From positions 57,293-121,292 of IMG/VR virus record IMGVR_UViG_3300018080_000121: a stretch of 64,000 bases of DNA; one strand, written 5' to 3'. Below the pieces are notes generated by a model, which had not been told where the DNA came from, searched no databases, and was given only the letters and a program-made list of their open reading frames with translations. The DNA comes from a virus. This document shows, piece after piece, positions 6,225-43,357 of the stretch; the first letter of the stretch is position 1, and every line of letters starts with the position of its first letter. The translations under genes and the position numbers were made by a program.

Positions 6225-6419
6225 ATGCGACGACCCAATCCTTATGGTATTGGTCCAGTTCCAATATTTGATCCATGTGAAAAATGTGTGATTAAAATGT
6301 GTTGCTCATATCTTTGTGAAGAGAAGATCAAATATGAAGGAGCAAAAGTACCACCAATAAAAACTAGAGTATACACGAAAGGAAAAAGAATAAAATGCGT
6401 AAAAAAGCGGATTTCGTAA
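6225..6419 (+). CDS. small Cys-rich protein, PCxxCVIKMCC family
   Basis: DPCEKCVIKMCCSYLC; paralog at 2369. Confidence 0.6.
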   Translation: MRRPNPYGIGPVPIFDPCEKCVIKMCCSYLCEEKIKYEGAKVPPIKTRVYTKGKRIKCVKKRIS

Positions 6420-6730
6420 CCAACAGTAGTTCGACGTCATATATCTTGACGGATAAGGAAGGTAGAATTGATCCACAGGGTAAGATGTTGATCGATTTGA
6501 AGAAGCAAGCGGATCTGACTGTGATTACGACAGAGATCTTGGACGAAATTGAGAAAAATGGATTCTATAAAATTGGTCAGTATTCCAGAATTGAACTGGA
6601 TGAAGGTGAACTTGAAAACGCCAGATTTGTGTTGTCGCACGGCGAGAAGGTTTACTGGATTGATGTATATGACGATCCAGCATGGTTTATTCCCAGTGGA
6701 GTAGTTGCTCAATGTGTAAATGATTATTAG
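6395..6730 (+). CDS. FVTNSSS-tag protein 1
   Basis: N-terminus MRKKADFVTNSSSTSYIL. Confidence 0.75.
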   Translation: MRKKADFVTNSSSTSYILTDKEGRIDPQGKMLIDLKKQADLTVITTEILDEIEKNGFYKIGQYSRIELDEGELENARFVLSHGEKVYWIDVYDDPAWFIPSGVVAQCVNDY

Positions 6731-6738
6731 GAGGGGAA

Positions 6739-7095
6739 ATGAGAAAGAAAGCTGATTTTGTAACGAATAGTTCGTCAACATCTTATATTGTGCATATTCC
6801 AGTTGATTTTACCTTGGATGCACATACAGAAGATATCAAGCAGTCGATTCTTGATTGGGATGGAGAAGTGAATGAAAAACGAATTGAGAAAGTAAAAGAT
6901 CAGCTCCATGAGTTGATGAACTTGAGTGGTCGAATGTATGAGTATGATAATCGCATTGAGATGGTAGCGCTGAGGGATCTATTCCATAAACTAGATTTCA
7001 TAATTGATGGAATTGATGTCGGATCTGATATGGGCGTACTTGTAAATATTAACACACTCAAGGCAAGACAAAAGATCGAAAAGATCGGAGCTTAA
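6739..7095 (+). CDS. FVTNSSS-tag protein 2
   Basis: N-terminus MRKKADFVTNSSSTSYIV; GGAGG RBS. Confidence 0.75.
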   Translation: MRKKADFVTNSSSTSYIVHIPVDFTLDAHTEDIKQSILDWDGEVNEKRIEKVKDQLHELMNLSGRMYEYDNRIEMVALRDLFHKLDFIIDGIDVGSDMGVLVNINTLKARQKIEKIGA

Positions 7096-11107: not shown

Positions 11108-11263
11108 ATGTGGTTTATTAAATCTCCACCCGGACTAGAAGCTGCTGCAGGAATTTTGAACGGGGTTATAGCAACGTTTTATCTACTTGTTATAATCGTT
11201 GGATTTTACTTTATCGGGTTAACATTTTGGGAGGTTCTATGCGTCGTAAGTGCGATTTCGTGA
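11108..11263 (+). CDS. small membrane protein (51 aa, not in ORF track)
   Basis: MWFIKSPPGLEAAAGILNGVIATFYLLVIIVGFYFIGLTFWEVLCVVSAIS; long hydrophobic stretch; fills the gap. Confidence 0.45.
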   Translation: MWFIKSPPGLEAAAGILNGVIATFYLLVIIVGFYFIGLTFWEVLCVVSAIS

Positions 11264-11835
11264 CAAATAGTAGCTCCGTGAGTTTCGTCTTGAAAGGTAA
11301 GGCTTGTGGTAGGGTTCCGACCATAGCTGATGATCTTCCAAAACTTCTTAGAGAAAGATTTCCTAGAAGTGACCATTATCCAGAAGAGGGCGCTGTAGTA
11401 TATGCTAGCTCCTATGCGATAGTGAAGGATGGTGTTCCATCTGAAGATGATGAGGATGCTCCACAGGGTAGTTATGAAATGACCCTTATAAATACCCATG
11501 ATTGGGATGAAGAACATGACGATGTAGTTGGTGTCACGGCGATTACCATTAATGTAGTAAGCCCTCTTATCTATGTTCGAAATCATCCGGTTATTATGGA
11601 TAGGGTGTTGTTTCTTCTAAATCAAATTCTTCCAAAAGATTCTCATGGCGAATTGTACTTCGCTCAAATGCCTACAGAAATGGAAGGTGGGGGATTAGAT
11701 GGTGGTGATCCAATGGGACCGTATGAATGGTCATTTGATATCTTGAGGTGTGAAACTAAATCTGGAAAGATAAAAATTAAAGATGGAAACCCACGGGGTT
11801 ATGTGAAATGGGTGAAATGTAAGGAGGAGCAATGA
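11239..11835 (+). CDS. FVTNSSS-tag protein 3
   Basis: ATG 11239 behind GGAGG; MRRKCDFVTNSSSVSFVL. Confidence 0.75.
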   Translation: MRRKCDFVTNSSSVSFVLKGKACGRVPTIADDLPKLLRERFPRSDHYPEEGAVVYASSYAIVKDGVPSEDDEDAPQGSYEMTLINTHDWDEEHDDVVGVTAITINVVSPLIYVRNHPVIMDRVLFLLNQILPKDSHGELYFAQMPTEMEGGGLDGGDPMGPYEWSFDILRCETKSGKIKIKDGNPRGYVKWVKCKEEQ

Positions 11836-12188: not shown

Positions 12189-12438
12189 ATATGGCTTTCA
12201 CATATCTGAATACAATGGAGTTTGGAAGTGGACAGTAAGGGACCAACATGGCGTAGAACTTGCGATGAGTCCACGACATGGGTTTGCATCTGCTGATGCT
12301 GCAGTCGAAGCAGTGAAAGAACTCATAAATTTTATCATTGACAATGGGTTCAATATCCCTGTAACCGTGTACAAAGAAGGATTGGAGAATGATAGACAAA
12401 ATACAAATAGTGAGTTGGCTACTGACGCGGCGGTGTAA
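12166..12438 (+). CDS. YegP/DUF1508-like small protein
   Basis: WKWTVRDQHGVELAMSPRHGFASADAAVEAV fits the YegP pattern (w.w.l...ng..ia.s..y.s...a...i). Confidence 0.5.
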   Translation: MMGWRESRYGFHISEYNGVWKWTVRDQHGVELAMSPRHGFASADAAVEAVKELINFIIDNGFNIPVTVYKEGLENDRQNTNSELATDAAV

Positions 12439-13423
12439 CCTCAAATGTTCCTATTGTGCGATTACCAGGAACTATAAAGGAAAACCAGATCAGTATCCTG
12501 ATATGAAGCACTACTTGGAAAATGAGATGGACACCAAAACAGTGATTGAAATTCTCAGGAGAATAAAGGCTCATAACCCAGATGCATTCCATATTCTTTA
12601 TGGGGGCGAGCCGCTCTTGAGAAAAGATCTTCCGGAGATTGTGAACTTCTGTAACTCAGAAGATATCCATTACACAATCATAACCAATAACTCTGACGAG
12701 GTCCAACCATTACTGGAAAAACTCTTGGTTGAGACCGACTACGTAACTGGTTTGACATCTTCTGTAGATCCTCTAGTTGAATCTGAGGACCCTGAATCCG
12801 ACCGTTATAAGAAATGTGTCGCAGGGTTTAATCGGTTGGGAGAATACAGAGATGTCATTAAAGATGTCGTTGCTGAAATAACCGTTGATAATAACAACGT
12901 TGGACATCTTTATAATCTTGTTGCTATGCTCACAAAGATGGGAGTTAATAGCGATATAACTTTCATTGATATTGCGAAGAGTCCGTACTATGACTTTTCA
13001 AATGTTACAGATGAAGGACTGTTGGTTCCCCAATCGGATGAGTTGAGTCTACAATTTGATAAGATTATAGATGATAAACTCGACGTACATATGGCGGATA
13101 AACTACTCCCAGAAATCTTTAAAATCTTACCGTCGGATATGGATTGTGGTATTGAAAACAATATCCATAACATGACCATTGACGCAGATGGATCAGTAAG
13201 ATTATGTTTGAGAATTCGAGGAGTACAAACTCCAAAATTTAAAGCAATTGATCAGTTTTCACCCGATGGAAAACTTATGGCTGCATCTCTTAGAAAGTTC
13301 ATAAAGCATGATAAAGACATATACTGTAGGGGTTGTAATTGGACCTGTATGTTGATGTCACGGATGCTTTCAAGGAGAAAAGATACAGTCCAGAATCTAG
13401 TCCATCGGGATAGGAGGAAATGA
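12389..13423 (+). CDS. radical SAM enzyme with C-terminal SPASM/Twitch-type Cys motifs
   Basis: CNLKCSYC, GGEPLL, C...TIDADGSVRLC...CRGCNWTC. Confidence 0.88.
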   Translation: MIDKIQIVSWLLTRRCNLKCSYCAITRNYKGKPDQYPDMKHYLENEMDTKTVIEILRRIKAHNPDAFHILYGGEPLLRKDLPEIVNFCNSEDIHYTIITNNSDEVQPLLEKLLVETDYVTGLTSSVDPLVESEDPESDRYKKCVAGFNRLGEYRDVIKDVVAEITVDNNNVGHLYNLVAMLTKMGVNSDITFIDIAKSPYYDFSNVTDEGLLVPQSDELSLQFDKIIDDKLDVHMADKLLPEIFKILPSDMDCGIENNIHNMTIDADGSVRLCLRIRGVQTPKFKAIDQFSPDGKLMAASLRKFIKHDKDIYCRGCNWTCMLMSRMLSRRKDTVQNLVHRDRRK

Positions 13424-35692: not shown

Positions 35693-36688
35693 ATGATTAA
35701 GGAAATCAAAACAAGTAAATATAGGATTTCATTTAACACAGAAACCGGGGAAGAAGAATTGGAAGGGATTAATGGAAACGACGATCCCTTTTCTCTGGAA
35801 TTTCCGAGTATGCTGGACATTGGAATTATGGGTAGCTGTCCGAATAAATGTAAGATGTGTTACCAAGGAGATAAGGTGGAGCCACATATGACTCTGGATC
35901 TGTTCAAACAAATCATTGACGAAGCAAAAGATGGTACATGTCAATGTGCGTTGGGTGGTCGTGGAGATCCAAATCTTCATCCGCAATTCGAGGAGATCAT
36001 TAAATACGCATGTGAAAATGGTGTGATTCCAAACTACACTACCAGCGGTAATGGTCTTACAGATGAACAAATAGAATCATCCAAAAAGTATTGCGGAGCT
36101 GTTGCTGTTAGCGACTATGGAAAGGAGTTCACATTCTCAGCTTTAAACAGACTGATGGATGCAGAAGTCAAAACAAATATTCATCTAGTCTTTTCTGCGC
36201 CAAACTTCATGAAGTCGATAGCCATTTTAGATGGTCAAGATGCATGGAGTGGTCGTGTCAATATAGAGAAGTTAAATGCTGTGATATTTCTCTTGTTTAA
36301 GCCACAAGGTCGTGGTAGAGATTTGGAGAAATGGATTCCAACTGATCTCATGCTGGAATTATTCAGCTATGGAATTGCACTTCCAAAAACGAAATTTAAA
36401 GTTGGGATGGATAGCTGCTTAGTAAACCATATCATGAGGTTTAGAAAACTCAACAAGTTGGAACAGGAGTACGTTGACACTTGTGAGGGTGCAAGGATGA
36501 GTTGTTACATTACACCAGATGGGAGACTTGTTCCTTGTTCATTTGGAAACCATGATGAATATGGAAGTGATATTAAACATCACGGAATAAGGAGAGTATG
36601 GAATGACGGACTTGCATTCAAAGGATTCAGAAAGACTCTTAGATCAAGACCAAATCAATGCCCTTTTGAAACGGACGGTTGGCGTTAG
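35693..36688 (+). CDS. radical SAM enzyme with SPASM/Twitch-type C-terminus
   Basis: CPNKCKMC, ALGGRGDP, TCEGARMSCYITPDGRLVPCSF...NQCP. Confidence 0.9.
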   Translation: MIKEIKTSKYRISFNTETGEEELEGINGNDDPFSLEFPSMLDIGIMGSCPNKCKMCYQGDKVEPHMTLDLFKQIIDEAKDGTCQCALGGRGDPNLHPQFEEIIKYACENGVIPNYTTSGNGLTDEQIESSKKYCGAVAVSDYGKEFTFSALNRLMDAEVKTNIHLVFSAPNFMKSIAILDGQDAWSGRVNIEKLNAVIFLLFKPQGRGRDLEKWIPTDLMLELFSYGIALPKTKFKVGMDSCLVNHIMRFRKLNKLEQEYVDTCEGARMSCYITPDGRLVPCSFGNHDEYGSDIKHHGIRRVWNDGLAFKGFRKTLRSRPNQCPFETDGWR

Positions 36689-36875
36689 AGCAATTGGTCA
36701 TGGGTTGATTGGTCTTGGAAAAGGATTAGCTTCCCTTGGTATTTGCGCAGTAGCACTATATGTCATCAAATATCATTATGAAGATATAAGTCTATTTTGG
36801 ACAGCGGTGATGGGAGGTGGTCTTATCGCGGGCATTTGGAAGTTTGATTGGGATTGGAATGGAGGGATATTTTAA
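36603..36875 (+). CDS. small membrane protein
   Basis: two Gly-rich hydrophobic segments; the true start may be internal. Confidence 0.5.
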   Translation: MTDLHSKDSERLLDQDQINALLKRTVGVRAIGHGLIGLGKGLASLGICAVALYVIKYHYEDISLFWTAVMGGGLIAGIWKFDWDWNGGIF

Positions 36876-36887
36876 AAGGAAAGAAAA

Positions 36888-37166
36888 ATGAAGAAAAAAC
36901 TAGACTTTGTTACCAACAGTTCGTCATCCAGTTTCGTAATAAGTTTATGTGATCTATCTCCAGTCCAGCAATTTGCTATCATGAATTATAAAGATTTTTG
37001 TGAATGTTTGGGTTGGGATGATTTCTATATGGCTGGCGACGACAACTGGAACATCGTATCTGGCGTATCCGAAATAAAGGGTACTACTTTCATGGACAAT
37101 TTTGATATGTACCAGTTCTTCGAGAGACTTGGAATTGACATGGAGAAAGTGAGGTGGAGTTCATGA
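36888..37166 (+). CDS. FVTNSSS-tag protein 4
   Basis: MKKKLDFVTNSSSSSFVI. Confidence 0.75.
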   Translation: MKKKLDFVTNSSSSSFVISLCDLSPVQQFAIMNYKDFCECLGWDDFYMAGDDNWNIVSGVSEIKGTTFMDNFDMYQFFERLGIDMEKVRWSS

Positions 37167-37531
37167 GAAAGAGATTAGACTTTGTTACCAACAGCTCAAC
37201 TTGTAGTTTTCTAATCGTTGGATGGGAGTTGCATAAAAGTCAACTTCCGGACAAATATAAAGACGAAGATGGTTACTTCGATTGGGAACGGACAATGGAT
37301 GACCAGGAGAGATTACATATTGAGGTTATGTTAGGTCGTGAGATGGGCGCCAAAGATGACGACCATATGATTGTTGGTGTTGACTGGGGTGGTGGAGATA
37401 TTGAAGATGATACCAAAGAAATCGCTATGAAAGATCTCCTTGAAGTCCAAAACAATGGTGAAATCAGAGAACTTTTTGGGATTCCAAACGGCGTAGATGC
37501 GTCTGTATTTTTCGGAATAAGGATGTGTTAA
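37163..37531 (+). CDS. FVTNSSS-tag protein 5
   Basis: ATG 37163; MRKRLDFVTNSSTCSFLI. Confidence 0.75.
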   Translation: MRKRLDFVTNSSTCSFLIVGWELHKSQLPDKYKDEDGYFDWERTMDDQERLHIEVMLGREMGAKDDDHMIVGVDWGGGDIEDDTKEIAMKDLLEVQNNGEIRELFGIPNGVDASVFFGIRMC

Positions 37532-37532
37532 C

Positions 37533-38084
37533 ATGAAACGAAAAGCCGATTTCGTAACTAATAGTTCGAGTACATCATTTACATTTATATTCAAAGGAAC
37601 TGATAAGAAACATCTCTTTGATCTTCTCCTAGCCAGAAAACAACTATTTGATCTACATTACGAGTCTGAGTGGGATGATGAAGGAACAGTTCATGAATGC
37701 ACCGTAGAGGATGTGATTGCTGCACTTGACAAGTTCTTGAGTGGCAGACTCTCCAGTCTGGACTTTAGTGGAAAGGTTGAATATATCAATGACCTTCTAG
37801 CTAGGAGGACTGCAGATATTCGATCTTGGGAAGAAATGTATGAGGATGATGTGGAGGATTGGGAGCAGAAGTGGATTACTGATAGTATCTCTGAGATAAA
37901 ACAAATCATCGGATTAATTAAGGGCGCTAAAGATCGAGGTCTTCTCTCAGTCGTTCAAATGGGTTTTGGAGATAACCACGGCGAAGTTTGGGGCGATGGA
38001 CTCGGAGTCGTAATGGATTATAAAGGAAGGAGGATATTTGTGAATGACGACGATCTCGTCATATTTACAGAACAAAATAGGTGA
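37533..38084 (+). CDS. FVTNSSS-tag protein 6
   Basis: MKRKADFVTNSSSTSFTF. Confidence 0.75.
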   Translation: MKRKADFVTNSSSTSFTFIFKGTDKKHLFDLLLARKQLFDLHYESEWDDEGTVHECTVEDVIAALDKFLSGRLSSLDFSGKVEYINDLLARRTADIRSWEEMYEDDVEDWEQKWITDSISEIKQIIGLIKGAKDRGLLSVVQMGFGDNHGEVWGDGLGVVMDYKGRRIFVNDDDLVIFTEQNR

Positions 38085-38087
38085 TTC

Positions 38088-38453
38088 ATGAAAAAGAAAG
38101 CAGATTTCGTAACTAATAGTTCCTCAGCGTCATTTGTGATGATCTTGCAAGCTACAAATGAGAATATTGATGTTGAGGACTTTCGAAAGAACTTTAACGA
38201 GTACTTAGAACACTATATGAAAGAAACTACGTACTCAAGAGAAGGTAAGAACAACATGCACTTTTGGGAAGCACTCCAGGTTCATGCTGGAGCCGTTCCA
38301 GGTGTTTTCAAGGTGTTAGATGGTACGTCAATGTACAATTGTCAAGATGACATTCCAAGGTACATGAGAGATATGTTAGTGAGACATCACATTGGCGGAT
38401 TTTTGGATTACGGGTTTAAACTAATTGACTTTTCAGTCGAACGAGACAGTTAA
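38088..38453 (+). CDS. FVTNSSS-tag protein 7
   Basis: MKKKADFVTNSSSASFVM. Confidence 0.75.
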   Translation: MKKKADFVTNSSSASFVMILQATNENIDVEDFRKNFNEYLEHYMKETTYSREGKNNMHFWEALQVHAGAVPGVFKVLDGTSMYNCQDDIPRYMRDMLVRHHIGGFLDYGFKLIDFSVERDS

Positions 38454-38464
38454 AGGAGGAGAAA

Positions 38465-39226
38465 ATGGCGAACAAAAAACCCGCGCTACATGAAGTACTG
38501 GCTGTTGTTGGTGACCTCAAGGGAGCCAAGGATAAAATTAAGATTGAAACTGAGAACACATTCAGAAAGAATGTTTCTCTTTTCCAAGGATCTTCCAGAC
38601 GACTCGAAATGTTCGAGGACTCCAGAAAACAGGAGGAAATGTCTGAGTCCAAATCTCTTACCACTACGGTAATGGAGAAGCTGACTTACATGAAGAAATC
38701 CTTCATTAAGTTCTGGGACGCCAAGGTCCAGAAAGAAGGAACTGCACAGTTGGCGCAAGCTGACATTGTTGTTGATGGGGAAACCCTAGCAACAAATATT
38801 CCTGTGTATTTTCTTTTGGAACTCGAGACGGAGTTGAAAGAACTGAGACGAGTTCTTGATGCTATTCCTACTCTGGCTCAGGGACCTACCTGGATCGAGG
38901 ATCCTACGGAACGAGCTGGGGTTTATAAAGCTCAGGATTCTACCATCACAATGAAGACTGAAAAGAGATATCAGCACAATGTGATGGTACCTGCTACCGA
39001 ACATCACCCTGCTCAGGTCCGCGAATGGACTGAGGATGTTCCTGTTGGTCGTTATGTGGCTGACCAGTGGAGTGGAATGATGTCTTCTGCTGAGAAATCT
39101 GCATTGATCGCAAGACTTGACAAACTATACCGCGCTGTTAAGAAAGCGAGACAGCGAGCAAATACCCAAGAAGTTGTCAAGGGGAACATTGGAGCAGTCT
39201 TGTTCAAATACATTCTGGGTGAATAG
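38465..39226 (+). CDS. conserved helical hypothetical protein
   Basis: 253 aa; AAAGGAGG RBS; motifs IPVYFLLELE, IPTL, ATEHHPAQV, DVPVG...WSG, LYRAVKKARQRAN. Confidence 0.7.
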   Translation: MANKKPALHEVLAVVGDLKGAKDKIKIETENTFRKNVSLFQGSSRRLEMFEDSRKQEEMSESKSLTTTVMEKLTYMKKSFIKFWDAKVQKEGTAQLAQADIVVDGETLATNIPVYFLLELETELKELRRVLDAIPTLAQGPTWIEDPTERAGVYKAQDSTITMKTEKRYQHNVMVPATEHHPAQVREWTEDVPVGRYVADQWSGMMSSAEKSALIARLDKLYRAVKKARQRANTQEVVKGNIGAVLFKYILGE

Positions 39227-39836: not shown

Positions 39837-39926
39837 GTGGATATTCGGGTGTTCGCACCCACTTGCATTATATGCTTGAAACATATAAATGGATGATGAA
39901 TATAAACGACAGGGGGAGTAGAGAAG

Positions 39927-40340
39927 GTGATCTCTACTCCCCCATTTTCCGTCGGAGGGAATCTTATGGAAGAAGAATACCACCATATCATTGGTGTTAG
40001 AACTGTACGCGCTGATAGCGGAAGACCAAAGTTATCATGCGACTTTGTAATCACAATTACGCCAGACCAAATTACTAAATCCCGCCTTGCTGAATCAATG
40101 TACAAAAACAAGTTATGGAAAACCACTTACCGAGAAGCGATTGAAGCGGTGGGTTTACAAGAGTTGGATGCTGCACTTTGGGCTTCCAAAATCAGAGCCA
40201 GTTCAAATATGATGACAATTCACAAATTTGTAACAAACTTTGAAATGACTAGAGAGGATTTTGATATCTTTGTACAAGCTGCGAATGTGTCAGATGGAAC
40301 TCTTAAGAAACTCATGGATGGAAAGATTGGAGGTGGTTAA
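39927..40340 (+). CDS. hypothetical protein
   Basis: likely ATG start near 39966 behind GGAGG. Confidence 0.55.
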   Translation: MISTPPFSVGGNLMEEEYHHIIGVRTVRADSGRPKLSCDFVITITPDQITKSRLAESMYKNKLWKTTYREAIEAVGLQELDAALWASKIRASSNMMTIHKFVTNFEMTREDFDIFVQAANVSDGTLKKLMDGKIGGG

Positions 40341-40608: not shown

Positions 40609-41016
40609 ATGAAAAGGAAAGCTGATTTTGTTACAAACTCAAGTAGTACTTCTTTTATTGCGATGGGGGTTGAATTTAATATCCCTGACGAAATGAAACA
40701 AACTGCGTTTGACAGAGCAGTTGCGTGGCATAAAGAAAAGGGATATAGCTTTGACTATAAGTCTGTAGATGAACTCTTTGAATCTGATTACGAAGGAATT
40801 GAAGCAGTTAGGTCGATGCTCGAAGAGTTGGGTCTTGAATGTGATTCCGACCCGTATGGTGATAGGGAATTGTTCGTAGGAATGCACCCGCAAAAAATGA
40901 ATGATGACGAAACACTACGTGAATTCAAACAACGAATTCTTGATCTTCTTAACCAGTTTGGAAAATTTACAATGGAGGACATTGGTTGGTTGGAAGATTG
41001 TAGATGGGATGGATAA
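40609..41016 (+). CDS. FVTNSSS-tag protein 8
   Basis: ATG 40609; MKRKADFVTNSSSTSFIA. Confidence 0.75.
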   Translation: MKRKADFVTNSSSTSFIAMGVEFNIPDEMKQTAFDRAVAWHKEKGYSFDYKSVDELFESDYEGIEAVRSMLEELGLECDSDPYGDRELFVGMHPQKMNDDETLREFKQRILDLLNQFGKFTMEDIGWLEDCRWDG

Positions 41017-42497: not shown

Positions 42498-42992
42498 ATG
42501 AATGAAATCGACTGGGATGATCCCATAGTTCTAGCAGAACAATCAGAAGAGTTGCGGCTGTCTCACGCAATAGCGATCGCAGCTGAAGCTCATAAGTATA
42601 CACTTGATAAAGGAGGACGCCCATATATACTCCACCCACTTACAGTTATGTTTCGATTTACTGATCCTATTGATCAAATGGCAGCTGTACTACACGATCT
42701 CATAGAAGATACATCCTATACTCTTGATGATTTATGGAGATTTGGTTTTGGAATACAGGTCGTAAATACGGTAGATGCGTTGACAAGACGAGAAGGTGAA
42801 ACTGTAAGGGAGTATTATGATAGATTGAAAGGAGATGAAAGAGCAGTAAGAATTAAGATGGAAGATCTAAGTCACAATATGGAGGTGATAAGATTTAAAA
42901 GAATGTTAGAAAAGAAGGACATTAACCGACTCAAAATGTACCATAAGATGTGGTTAGAACTATGGACATTCAAGGAAGGAGTGATAGCTTGA
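42498..42992 (+). CDS. HD-domain hydrolase, RelA/SpoT hydrolase-only type
   Basis: AAEAH...DKGGRPYILHP, AAVLHDLIEDT, ALTR, IKMEDLSHN. Confidence 0.85.
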   Translation: MNEIDWDDPIVLAEQSEELRLSHAIAIAAEAHKYTLDKGGRPYILHPLTVMFRFTDPIDQMAAVLHDLIEDTSYTLDDLWRFGFGIQVVNTVDALTRREGETVREYYDRLKGDERAVRIKMEDLSHNMEVIRFKRMLEKKDINRLKMYHKMWLELWTFKEGVIA

Positions 42993-43357
42993 AAAAGAAA
43001 CTTGATTTCGTAACCAACTCATCATCTACATCTTTTATCATTGGAGATATGAGAGGTGACATTGATGACGCAATTGGGAAGGTGACCATTACAGTAAATC
43101 TCCGAGACTTCCTGGAGAAATCAATCGAAACAAGAGAGGAACTCCACGACTTTTGGGAATACTGGTATGGGGATTTTGAAACTCGAACAGAGGACTACGA
43201 AAAGTGTTGTAAGATTATTGACGATGGCGGTGTAATCCACGTCCTCAACGTCAGTAATGAGGGAGAGGTAATAGAGGCAGTCATTCAAGATGAAGGATTG
43301 AATGACATGGATTTGCCAGATCATATTATTGTGATTCAAGGAGAAGGAGGTTATTAG
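42989..43357 (+). CDS. FVTNSSS-tag protein 9
   Basis: TTG 42989 behind AAGGAG; (M)KKKLDFVTNSSSTSFII. Confidence 0.75.
   Translation: MKKKLDFVTNSSSTSFIIGDMRGDIDDAIGKVTITVNLRDFLEKSIETREELHDFWEYWYGDFETRTEDYEKCCKIIDDGGVIHVLNVSNEGEVIEAVIQDEGLNDMDLPDHIIVIQGEGGY

Follow-up and report, generated by a model that had tools for sequence, protein, structure and literature searches.

The question raised by this viral locus is why a radical SAM gene stands directly before a row of genes whose products all begin with the same short sequence, and whether the enzyme acts upon that sequence. The first-pass annotation of the window (the whole stretch of 64,000 nucleotides analyzed here) had described a radical SAM gene with a single small membrane ORF behind it and then four tagged genes in a row. 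This anatomy is directly visible and agrees with the ORF list, in which the four tagged genes are closely spaced. The relevant features of the window are:

6395-6730, plus strand: tagged client, 111 aa (six-frame scan)
6739-7095, plus strand: tagged client, 118 aa, zero cysteines (six-frame scan)
11239-11835, plus strand: tagged client, 198 aa, referred to as tagged gene 3 (six-frame scan)
12389-13423: second radical SAM gene (ORF list)
35693-36688, plus strand: radical SAM enzyme, 331 aa (ORF list, Pfam, AF2 model)
36603-36875, plus strand: 90-aa ORF separating the enzyme from the operon's first client (ORF list, hydropathy profile)
36888-37166, plus strand: tagged client, 92 aa, pI 4.3 (ORF list, scan)
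37163-37531, plus strand: tagged client, 122 aa, NSST variant of the tag (ORF list, scan)
37533-38084, plus strand: tagged client, 183 aa (ORF list, scan)
38088-38453, plus strand: tagged client, 121 aa (ORF list, scan)
40609-41016, plus strand: tagged client, 135 aa (ORF list, scan)
42989-43357, plus strand: tagged client, 122 aa, TTG start, GEGGY end (scan, AF2 model)

The enzyme and its operon

The product of 35693-36688 carries the motifs C49-x3-C53-x2-C56 and C264...PDGRLVPC282. It is placed in the radical SAM superfamily by its Pfam match (PF04055, Radical_SAM; 3.8e-9, 37.4 bits with a cut-off of 29.5) and also matches Pfam SPASM (1.4e-5, 25.7 bits, cut-off 21.5). A GG-x-G-[DEN]-P motif is conserved. 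Strands and helices alternate in the AF2 model (pLDDT 86.9, pTM 0.88), and the N-terminus, about 40 residues ahead of the cluster motif, is predicted to form a conserved three-strand sheet devoid of helices. The full SPASM seven-Cys motif for two auxiliary clusters (CX9-15GX4C ... CX2CX5CX3C ... C) is not present in the window enzyme. Its first half (C264...G-x4-C282) occurs there and in 76/76 assessable viral relatives, and all of these proteins have a single Cys after this half (after PCSF) and end before CX2CX5CX3C. Cellular relatives retain the full motif, whereas the second auxiliary-cluster motif is absent from the phage enzymes. Full-SPASM enzymes paired with the tag occur, for example, among the pAt genes of Agrobacterium tumefaciens Ach5 and in Clostridium kluyveri. 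Judged by these motifs, the phage enzyme is best called twitch-like, with a shortened SPASM tail.

The 90-aa ORF downstream of the enzyme gene contains two hydrophobic segments (residues ~31-55 and ~61-79), which correspond to one or two helices in the hydropathy profile. Homologues were found only in two near-identical contigs (L127 and L128), and the small hydrophobic ORFs that occupy the same place in other phage loci are unrelated to it. Membership of this ORF in the system is uncertain.

All four tagged proteins of the operon start with M-[KR]-x-[KR]-x-DFVTNSS[ST]-x-S-[FY], and the ATG of 37163-37531 overlaps the stop codon of the preceding gene (ATGA). In a six-frame scan, DFVTNSS was detected nine times in the window, always on the plus strand and directly after a start codon, with five of the tagged genes lying outside the enzyme operon; the remaining 57 kb of the record contained no copy. 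By our own estimate, about 1e-4 occurrences of a given 7-residue peptide are expected by chance in 128,000 codon positions. At tag positions 6-13, different codons are used in 180 of the 280 same-residue codon pairs (64%). The tag is therefore conserved as a peptide, and a DNA repeat or recent duplication was ruled out as the origin of the common start.

Searches with Pfam, NCBIfam and PHROGs found no family for the tagged proteins of the window. A C-terminal MDNFDMY motif characterises the subfamily of client 36888-37166, which has bacterial members too. In the AF2 model of client 42989-43357, residues 1-9 have a pLDDT below 50 and no regular secondary structure is predicted through residue 24; a fold search with one client model yielded no PDB match.

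The tag heads otherwise unrelated proteins

Portability of the tag was observed directly. It occurs in 10,270 representative protein clusters, and in 141 of the best 150 it begins at residue 1. The N-terminal position is not absolute, because a few proteins have a second, internal copy. In the logo built from enzyme-selected viral loci, T9, N10, S11, S12 and F/Y16 reach 100% and F7 97%. The tagged proteins range from 41 to 1814 aa, and their bodies include LRR_5, TIR_2, HIRAN and BRCT domains, membrane or lipoprotein-like segments and small acidic proteins. When the nine phage bodies were compared without the tag, with each other and with two cellular subfamilies, no similarity was detected (blastp best E 0.43; hhalign probability ≤6%). 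This zero similarity after tag removal ruled out that the phage clients are decoys of tagged subfamilies linked to Avs2. A PADLOC search with one cellular tagged protein gave no match, a literature search on the motif string returned no description of the tag, and public databases annotate the tagged proteins as hypothetical.

The tag had initially been read as a leader. Cleavage is unsupported, and among the recurrent neighbours of cellular tag loci there is no conserved protease, exporter, peptidase or virion gene.

Tag and enzyme are near-obligate neighbours in cellular genomes

As a co-occurrence test, 120 bacterial and archaeal loci from GTDB were selected by the tag DNA pattern alone and analyzed with their 8-kb surroundings. 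A homologue of the window enzyme was present inside 8 kb at 92 of these loci, with 27-42% identity and E-values of 1e-37 to 1e-73 for near full-length copies. Every tag gene with an enzyme neighbour lies on the strand of the enzyme (119/119), typically separated from it by -3 to +20 nt, and either gene order is seen. Among ten of the tag loci with no enzyme in the 8-kb piece, five belong to genomes that encode it elsewhere (E <1e-100), and one has a broken enzyme copy adjoining the tag.

The same coupling was observed in a census of 300 genomes of one class (Clostridia). The enzyme family is present in ten of them and adjoins a tag gene in 10/10. Five of these tags fit the strict pattern and five escape it, three with a D6G exchange and two most likely with CGN Arg codons. 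The strict pattern was found in 0/290 of the enzyme-less genomes. Tag and enzyme subfamily are thereby seen directly to be near-obligate neighbours in cellular genomes. The earlier suggestion of a phage maturase for tagged clients holds with respect to this coupling but not with respect to restriction to phages, since bacteria, archaea and plasmids have the module.

Viral relatives with and without the tag

Relatives of the window enzyme are encoded on 205 viral stretches, 80 of which were combined with two near-identical contigs into a set of 82 loci. The strict tag is present in 52 of the 82, mostly directly after the enzyme, and about six more have variants. A complete 312-kb phage has ten tags, nine of them in the roughly 11 kb that follow the enzyme, and related giant phages have one enzyme and 5-10 tagged genes each. 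Many clients to a single enzyme would be expected of a multi-substrate maturase. About 24 of the 82 loci are without any tag, so the enzyme clade is able to exist without this tag; five tagless enzyme records of 38-65 kb contain zero tags along their whole length, and roughly 11-14 tagless loci have a neighbour of about 200 aa with a GNMNxDDPxDHRD motif instead. Cultured Klebsiella and Vibrio phages encode distant relatives (28% identity) that also have the N-terminal sheet, and tags are absent there.

The second radical SAM gene

The gene 12389-13423 had also been named as a candidate for co-expression with tagged proteins. Its position, given as about 550 bp past tagged gene 3, was measured as 554 nt after 11239-11835. 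This closeness would fit a second tag maturase serving the subfamily of about 200 aa typified by 11239-11835, as would a 2.4-kb contig (L093) in which a 54%-identical homologue immediately follows a 231-aa tagged gene. We nevertheless regard such a role as improbable. The gene belongs to a different family, which matches Radical_SAM but not SPASM and gives weak viperin-like matches. Five other phage contigs encode relatives with 56-64% identity, and in none of them does a tag lie within 6 kb; a relative occurs in just one of the 120 tag-selected loci. By these comparisons, 12389 is not generally linked to the tag.

Association with antiviral operons

An Avs2-like STAND NTPase is present in the operon at about a fifth of the cellular tag loci (~25/120). 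Three of them (L057, L064 and L097) have the three-gene form tagged protein, enzyme, Avs2-like NTPase (PADLOC Avs2 up to 5.5e-82). In the phage window, no STAND gene adjoins the enzyme-tag module.

The KpAvs2 operon (IMG scaffold 2701097382) consists of the Avs2 STAND protein, the radical SAM protein Avap1 and the small protein Avap2, which binds KpAvs2 and was placed in DUF6375 by HHpred (Bechon et al., Nat Commun 2024, PMC11564622). For Avap1, which has no known product, no viperin-type products were found and a role was seen solely against T2; AF2 analysis revealed no NTP pocket in it (PMC11564622). The two systems resemble each other in that a STAND Avs2 is joined by a radical SAM enzyme and a small protein in one three-gene operon. 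The tag goes unmentioned in PMC11564622, and the likeness is one of operon layout. No DUF6375 (PF19902) was detected in tagged proteins by HMMER, nor by Pfam with E allowed up to 5. Five genomes searched with PF19902 and a look-up in the Atlas likewise gave no match, and there was no Klebsiella member among the homologues listed. The literature on SPASM proteins combined with defence or STAND terms yielded analogues only.

A putative protein-modification module

On the strength of these genomic patterns, enzyme and 16-residue tag probably constitute a two-part protein-modification module with the tag as substrate. Enzyme and tag stand side by side in numerous bacteria, archaea and phages, and antiviral operons are a frequent setting; the pair is thus most likely a system not described before, for the N-terminal modification of whole proteins. 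The tag, M-K-x-K-x-D-F-V-T-N-S-S-S-x-S-F, would be a portable exposed peptide at the head of otherwise unrelated proteins. The enzyme would bind it, and the 5'-deoxyadenosyl radical would alter at least one invariant residue (F7, T9, N10, S11, S12, S13, F/Y16), likely giving an intramolecular cross-link, a side-chain oxidation or an epimerisation. With the tag altered in place, the full-length protein would bear a modified N-terminus. In the window phage, a giant phage, one enzyme would serve nine clients, four of them encoded in its own operon. The original idea of a single maturase acting on the common Ser-rich tag of many clients gains support from the coupling; the modification itself we infer, and with it the tag as substrate, the residue altered and the biological role.

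Two accounts in which the enzyme has no part in the function of the tag appear very improbable. If the tag were the conserved first strand of a single fast-evolving paralogous family beside an unrelated enzyme, the hydrophobic, strand-like residues after it (SF-I-I-x) would be explained, as would the few acidic columns with weak conservation in the nine-way alignment. The bodies minus tag are, however, devoid of detectable similarity, unrelated Pfam domains and lengths of 41-1814 aa stand behind it, the tag is the lowest-confidence part of the AF2 model and the enzyme coupling is near-obligate. Slighter still is the probability of a sorting signal, for secretion or for capsid targeting, with an incidental enzyme. 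The internal proteins of phage T4, an example of such capsid targeting, likewise have no known common feature beyond a short N-terminal sequence, and in some tagged proteins of cells a hydrophobic, lipoprotein-like segment comes immediately past the tag. The same tag occurs together with the enzyme across archaea and bacteria of many phyla, and neither protease nor exporter nor virion gene is a conserved neighbour. A common sorting machine for these hosts is implausible.

A more serious competitor, though in our view still unlikely, is that the tag serves as a docking peptide which tethers the enzyme to diverse adaptors (LRR, TIR, HIRAN, BRCT, small acidic proteins) while the enzyme acts on a nucleotide, a nucleic acid, a lipid or a third protein. 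Adjacency and co-orientation suit a stable complex equally well as an enzyme-substrate pair, the conserved N-terminal three-strand sheet could accept the tag as an added strand, and the radical SAM accessory protein of KpAvs2 is without known product (PMC11564622). However, the phage ratio of one enzyme to 5-10 tagged proteins suits substrates better than stoichiometric partners, and the invariant residues (T-N-S-S-S) are polar and reactive instead of following a purely hydrophobic strand pattern. In addition, the nearest solved relatives are peptide modifiers, and the published AF2 analysis of Avap1 revealed no NTP pocket.

Returning to the tag as substrate, the position of the module in or beside Avs2-like STAND operons and the occurrence of the tag on TIR, LRR, HIRAN and BRCT proteins suggest that a modification would most likely arm, stabilise or regulate proteins of phage-host conflict. 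We offer its most general form only tentatively: the enzyme would cap or cross-link a universal N-terminal handle of 16 residues, immune proteins, the unexplained accessory proteins of Avs2 operons among them, would need this mark for their activity, their stability or the recognition of partners, and giant phages would use their own copy of the pair to arm 5-10 counter-defence proteins.

Significance

More than 10,000 tag-headed protein clusters are distributed across bacteria, archaea and phages, all of them annotated as hypothetical. If the enzyme modifies the tag, radical SAM modification at the protein level would gain a large new class, a concrete and testable role would be at hand for the so far unexplained radical SAM gene that accompanies Avs2-type antiviral operons, and the 5-10 tagged proteins of each giant phage would form a functionally linked group, likely in infection or counter-defence. 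If the conflict proteins are indeed armed in this way, RiPP-type chemistry on whole proteins would be a regulatory layer of immunity in bacteria, archaea and viruses. A short portable tag could also serve as a handle for enzymatic protein modification.

Comparison with known radical SAM systems

The window enzyme has a PADLOC match to pVip, the prokaryotic viperin (1.8e-7), which covers residues 45-140 only, i.e. the shared cluster region. With 20.6 bits against a cut-off of 180 for the NCBIfam viperin model, it does not classify as a pVip.

FxSxx-COOH proteins and FxsB resemble the present system in that a SPASM enzyme is paired with small fast-diverging proteins having one short motif, and they reside in STAND-NTPase (AP-ATPase/TIR) conflict loci (Haft; Kaur et al., eLife 2020, PMC7159879). 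The FxSxx motif is, however, C-terminal, released by a metallopeptidase and actinobacterial, whereas the tag is N-terminal and has no recurrent peptidase neighbour. FxsB (TIGR04269-type) was not among the NCBIfam matches of the window enzyme at E up to 0.1.

Like the enzyme proposed here, anSME/AtsB and CrpC, which acts on CrpA (PMC13692751), are SPASM enzymes acting on full-length proteins. The anSME enzymes, which form formylglycine, require C/S-x-P/A-x-R inside sulfatases, a motif missing from the tag; the window enzyme gave a weak PDB profile match to anSME (5e-6), and the anSME model was not among its NCBIfam matches. CrpC forms Cys thioethers in a Cys-rich protein, whereas the tag has no conserved Cys. 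For this reason, and with client 6739-7095 being Cys-free, Cys-thioether chemistry of the sactipeptide or ranthipeptide type was rejected as the general reaction.

The nearest solved structures to the window enzyme are SuiB, PqqE, CteB and SkfB, with SuiB matching at 1.5e-14 in the profile search and at 1.3e-12 with a TM of 0.65 in Foldseek. The window enzyme shares fold and cluster motifs with these RiPP maturases (SuiB-SuiA for streptide, SkfB-SkfA, CteB, PqqE-PqqA), in which the enzyme gene likewise adjoins genes sharing a short N-terminal sequence and several precursors per enzyme are possible. An RRE or PqqD-like domain (winged helix plus three-strand sheet) is absent from the window enzyme, which has no PqqD-type Pfam match. 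The module also differs in lacking a protease or exporter, and loss of the second auxiliary cluster sets the phage clade apart. While RiPP maturases act on short peptides, the clients here are entire proteins that measure 41-1814 aa and have folded domains. The conserved segment, instead of being a discarded leader, lies at the very N-terminus and is probably itself where the chemistry takes place.

The enzyme gene and tagged genes of the window

The window covers the 3' half of an IMG/VR virus record of 121 kb; with a completeness of 39% (CheckV), the record implies a giant phage with a genome of ~300 kb. The first-pass annotation had described a radical SAM gene (the enzyme) followed by a small membrane ORF and four consecutive tagged genes, a layout that agrees with the ORF list, from which the following features are taken (enzyme also from Pfam):

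35693-36688, + strand: enzyme gene, 331 aa
36603-36875, + strand: hydrophobic ORF, 90 aa
36888-37166, 37163-37531, 37533-38084 and 38088-38453, + strand: four close-packed tagged genes

No convincing terminator was found in 35693-39226. A full-length DUF7873 protein (7.8e-71) is encoded directly after the four tagged genes, at 38465-39226; among the loci compared, its gene recurs only in two near-identical contigs. A perfect 13-bp GC-rich hairpin (GGGGGAGTAGAGA...TCTCTACTCCCCC) at 39912-39943, terminator-like on both strands, sits just 3' of a tRNA-like region.

The tag, an N-terminal start of the form M-[KR]-x-[KR]-x-DFVTNSS[ST]-x-S-[FY], is carried by nine ORFs of the window and is absent from the remainder of the 121-kb record. 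Shine-Dalgarno-like sequences lie 5' of all nine (9/9), the encoded proteins (clients) are acidic with pI values of 4.2-5.7, and the codons used for the tag vary freely from copy to copy.

Tag and enzyme in other viruses

Relatives of the enzyme are encoded on 205 IMG/VR stretches, and 82 viral loci were analysed. The strict tag was present in 52 of the 82, usually beginning no more than tens of bases 3' of the enzyme, and about six further loci had a variant tag in which position 6 is G or S. In a complete 312-kb phage the tag occurs ten times; nine of the copies fall in the ~11 kb 3' of the enzyme and share its strand. Two further giant phages carry five or six copies. In a logo drawn with a relaxed pattern from enzyme-selected viral loci, T9, N10, S11, S12 and F/Y16 were each conserved at 100%, F7 at 97%, S13 at 96%, K2 and K4 at 93-94% and D6 at 80%.

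The tag was missing at about 24 of the 82 viral enzyme loci, including five records of 38-65 kb that are entirely tag-free, and these loci count against a strict coupling of tag and enzyme. At ~11-14 of them the enzyme instead has a neighbour of ~200 aa that bears a GNMNxDDPxDHRD motif (L155, L157, L158, L159, L164, L173, L174, L180 and L204-L206 among the viral loci), and such proteins may be an alternative client family. The motif, in full GNMNxDDPxDHRDLN, lies near residue 30, and the protein, followed by a ~160-aa signal-peptide protein, is encoded just 3' of the enzyme. Cultured Klebsiella (Slopekvirus) and Vibrio phages contained only a 28%-identical enzyme relative and zero tags.

Co-occurrence in cellular genomes

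A degenerate DNA pattern of the tag, run on GTDB contigs with one genome per species, returned at least 120 loci, taken as 8-kb pieces. Among the matches listed, tag loci span Bacillota, Bacteroidota, Actinomycetota, Pseudomonadota, Planctomycetota, Patescibacteria, Methanoculleus and Thermoplasmatales, and 92 of 120 pieces encode a homologue of the window enzyme (27-42% identity). Tag genes with an enzyme neighbour were on the same strand in 119/119 cases, typically separated by -3 to +20 nt, and either gene can come first. The other 28 of the 120 listed loci had no enzyme in the piece, many with the tag at the piece edge; full-genome searches for ten of these found the enzyme in five (E <1e-100) and a broken copy beside the tag in one.

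As a control, 300 evenly sampled genomes of a single class (Clostridia) were searched. The enzyme family occurred in ten, five of which had the strict tag pattern adjoining the enzyme. The remaining five had a variant tag beside the enzyme that the strict pattern missed; three of these variants are D6G, and in two the arginines are most likely encoded by CGN. The strict pattern was absent from all 290 genomes without the enzyme. With the seed genome excluded, the hypergeometric chance that four strict hits all fall within nine enzyme-positive genomes is ~4e-7. Co-occurrence, put forward in the first-pass annotation as a check, was borne out by both the listed loci and the control, and the genomic coupling of tag and enzyme is about the strongest that comparative genomics can give.

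The enzyme family

Both Pfam matches of the enzyme, Radical_SAM (3.8e-9) and SPASM (1.4e-5), exceed their cut-offs; every NCBIfam match was far under its cut-off, and the top PHROG is an unnamed family. A 30-sequence profile searched against solved structures matched SuiB (1.5e-14), SkfB, PqqE, BtrN and anSME. The AF2 model (pLDDT 86.9, pTM 0.88) has three N-terminal strands ahead of the radical SAM barrel and no RRE, and Foldseek ranked SuiB, PqqE, CteB and SkfB at the top.

Cellular relatives retain the complete SPASM cysteine set. The window enzyme (C-terminus 36640-36688) and all 76 assessable viral relatives (L127-L208) end after one Cys beyond PCSF and lack CX2CX5CX3C, so the viral enzymes can hold at most one auxiliary cluster; the phage clade has lost the second cluster that cellular relatives keep. 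In 47 of 73 cellular members (L030, L110, L120 and 44 others) CX7CX6C replaces CX3CX2C, a spacing that is unusual in the cluster loop of radical SAM enzymes, with the middle cysteine borne by an 8-residue G-x-x-G-L-C insert (alignment columns 98-112).

The second radical SAM gene, 12389-13423, which the first-pass annotation had also linked to the tag, is not generally tag-associated. It belongs to a different family without SPASM, and its viperin-like matches are weak (PADLOC pVip 6.7e-13). In the 2.4-kb contig L093 a tagged gene is immediately followed by a 54%-identical homologue; no tags were found near five other viral relatives.

The tag as a portable module and possible substrate

Stripped of their first 17 residues, the nine client bodies showed no pairwise similarity (blastp, best E 0.43) and no resemblance to two cellular tagged subfamilies or a profile of client 42989 orthologues (hhalign probability <=6%). 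Elsewhere the tag stands at the start of BspA-type LRR proteins (up to 1814 aa), one TIR protein, one HIRAN protein and BRCT proteins, and in some proteins a transmembrane or lipoprotein-like segment lies directly behind it. Client 42989, modelled with 16 orthologues in the alignment (mean pLDDT 82.9), scored <50 at residues 1-9, showed no regular secondary structure ahead of residue 24 and matched no solved fold. A 32-column tag profile (E up to 1e-3) matched 10,270 representative clusters in 1.84 billion proteins, and in 141 of the best 150 of these the tag was exactly N-terminal. A few database proteins (P0108, P0109, P0110 and P0111) have two copies; the second copy in P0109 is internal and lacks the Met-Lys lead-in, so an N-terminal position is not a strict rule for the motif.

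An exposed, portable tag with polar invariant residues and a single enzyme alongside many tagged proteins together favour an enzyme-substrate relation, which we regard as probable, over a tag that serves docking only, which we consider unlikely. As to the chemistry of such a modification, a general Cys-thioether reaction is excluded, since the tag has no conserved Cys and client 6739-7095 has none at all. Candidate reactions that remain are a cyclophane or ether-type cross-link at F7, T9, N10, S11-13 or F16, Ser oxidation and epimerisation.

Operon context and comparison with known systems

Clustering of neighbouring genes at the cellular loci gave only two other recurrent partners. The first is an Avs2-like STAND/NACHT NTPase (25 loci), which matches PADLOC Avs2 at up to 5.5e-82 and has a trypsin-like, TIR-like or other effector domain at its N-terminus; the second is a ~135-aa protein (21 loci). 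No protease or exporter recurred. The typical order is NTPase, 135-aa protein, tagged 138-aa protein and enzyme, as in Sporomusa and on the pAt plasmid of Agrobacterium tumefaciens Ach5, a cultured and tractable organism. There, the four-gene operon (L220; NZ_CP011248.1, 20854-25306) encodes an 889-aa 'SMEK domain' STAND-like protein, a 122-aa protein, a 132-aa tagged protein with the variant DFVSNSSS and a 345-aa radical SAM enzyme. At three loci (L057, L064 and L097) the tagged protein comes first, then the enzyme, then the NTPase. Five Avs2-linked operons also encode, 3' of the enzyme, a protein of ~310 aa that contains an M1E1E6-like integron-cassette domain (e.g. L029:3313-4278).

In public databases the tagged proteins are annotated as 'hypothetical' and the enzyme as a 'radical SAM/SPASM domain-containing protein'. 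No description of the tag was found in curated families or in the searchable literature, where the tag-enzyme pairing is undescribed. The architecture of the tag-enzyme-NTPase loci matches, in gene arrangement only, that of the KpAvs2 operon, in which the radical SAM protein Avap1 is required only against T2 and yields no viperin-type product, and the small protein Avap2 binds KpAvs2 (PMC11564622). Among described concepts, the FxSxx-COOH/FxsB module for peptide processing in STAND conflict systems (PMC7159879) comes closest; it differs from the tag system in the position of its motif, in having a peptidase and in its enzyme family.
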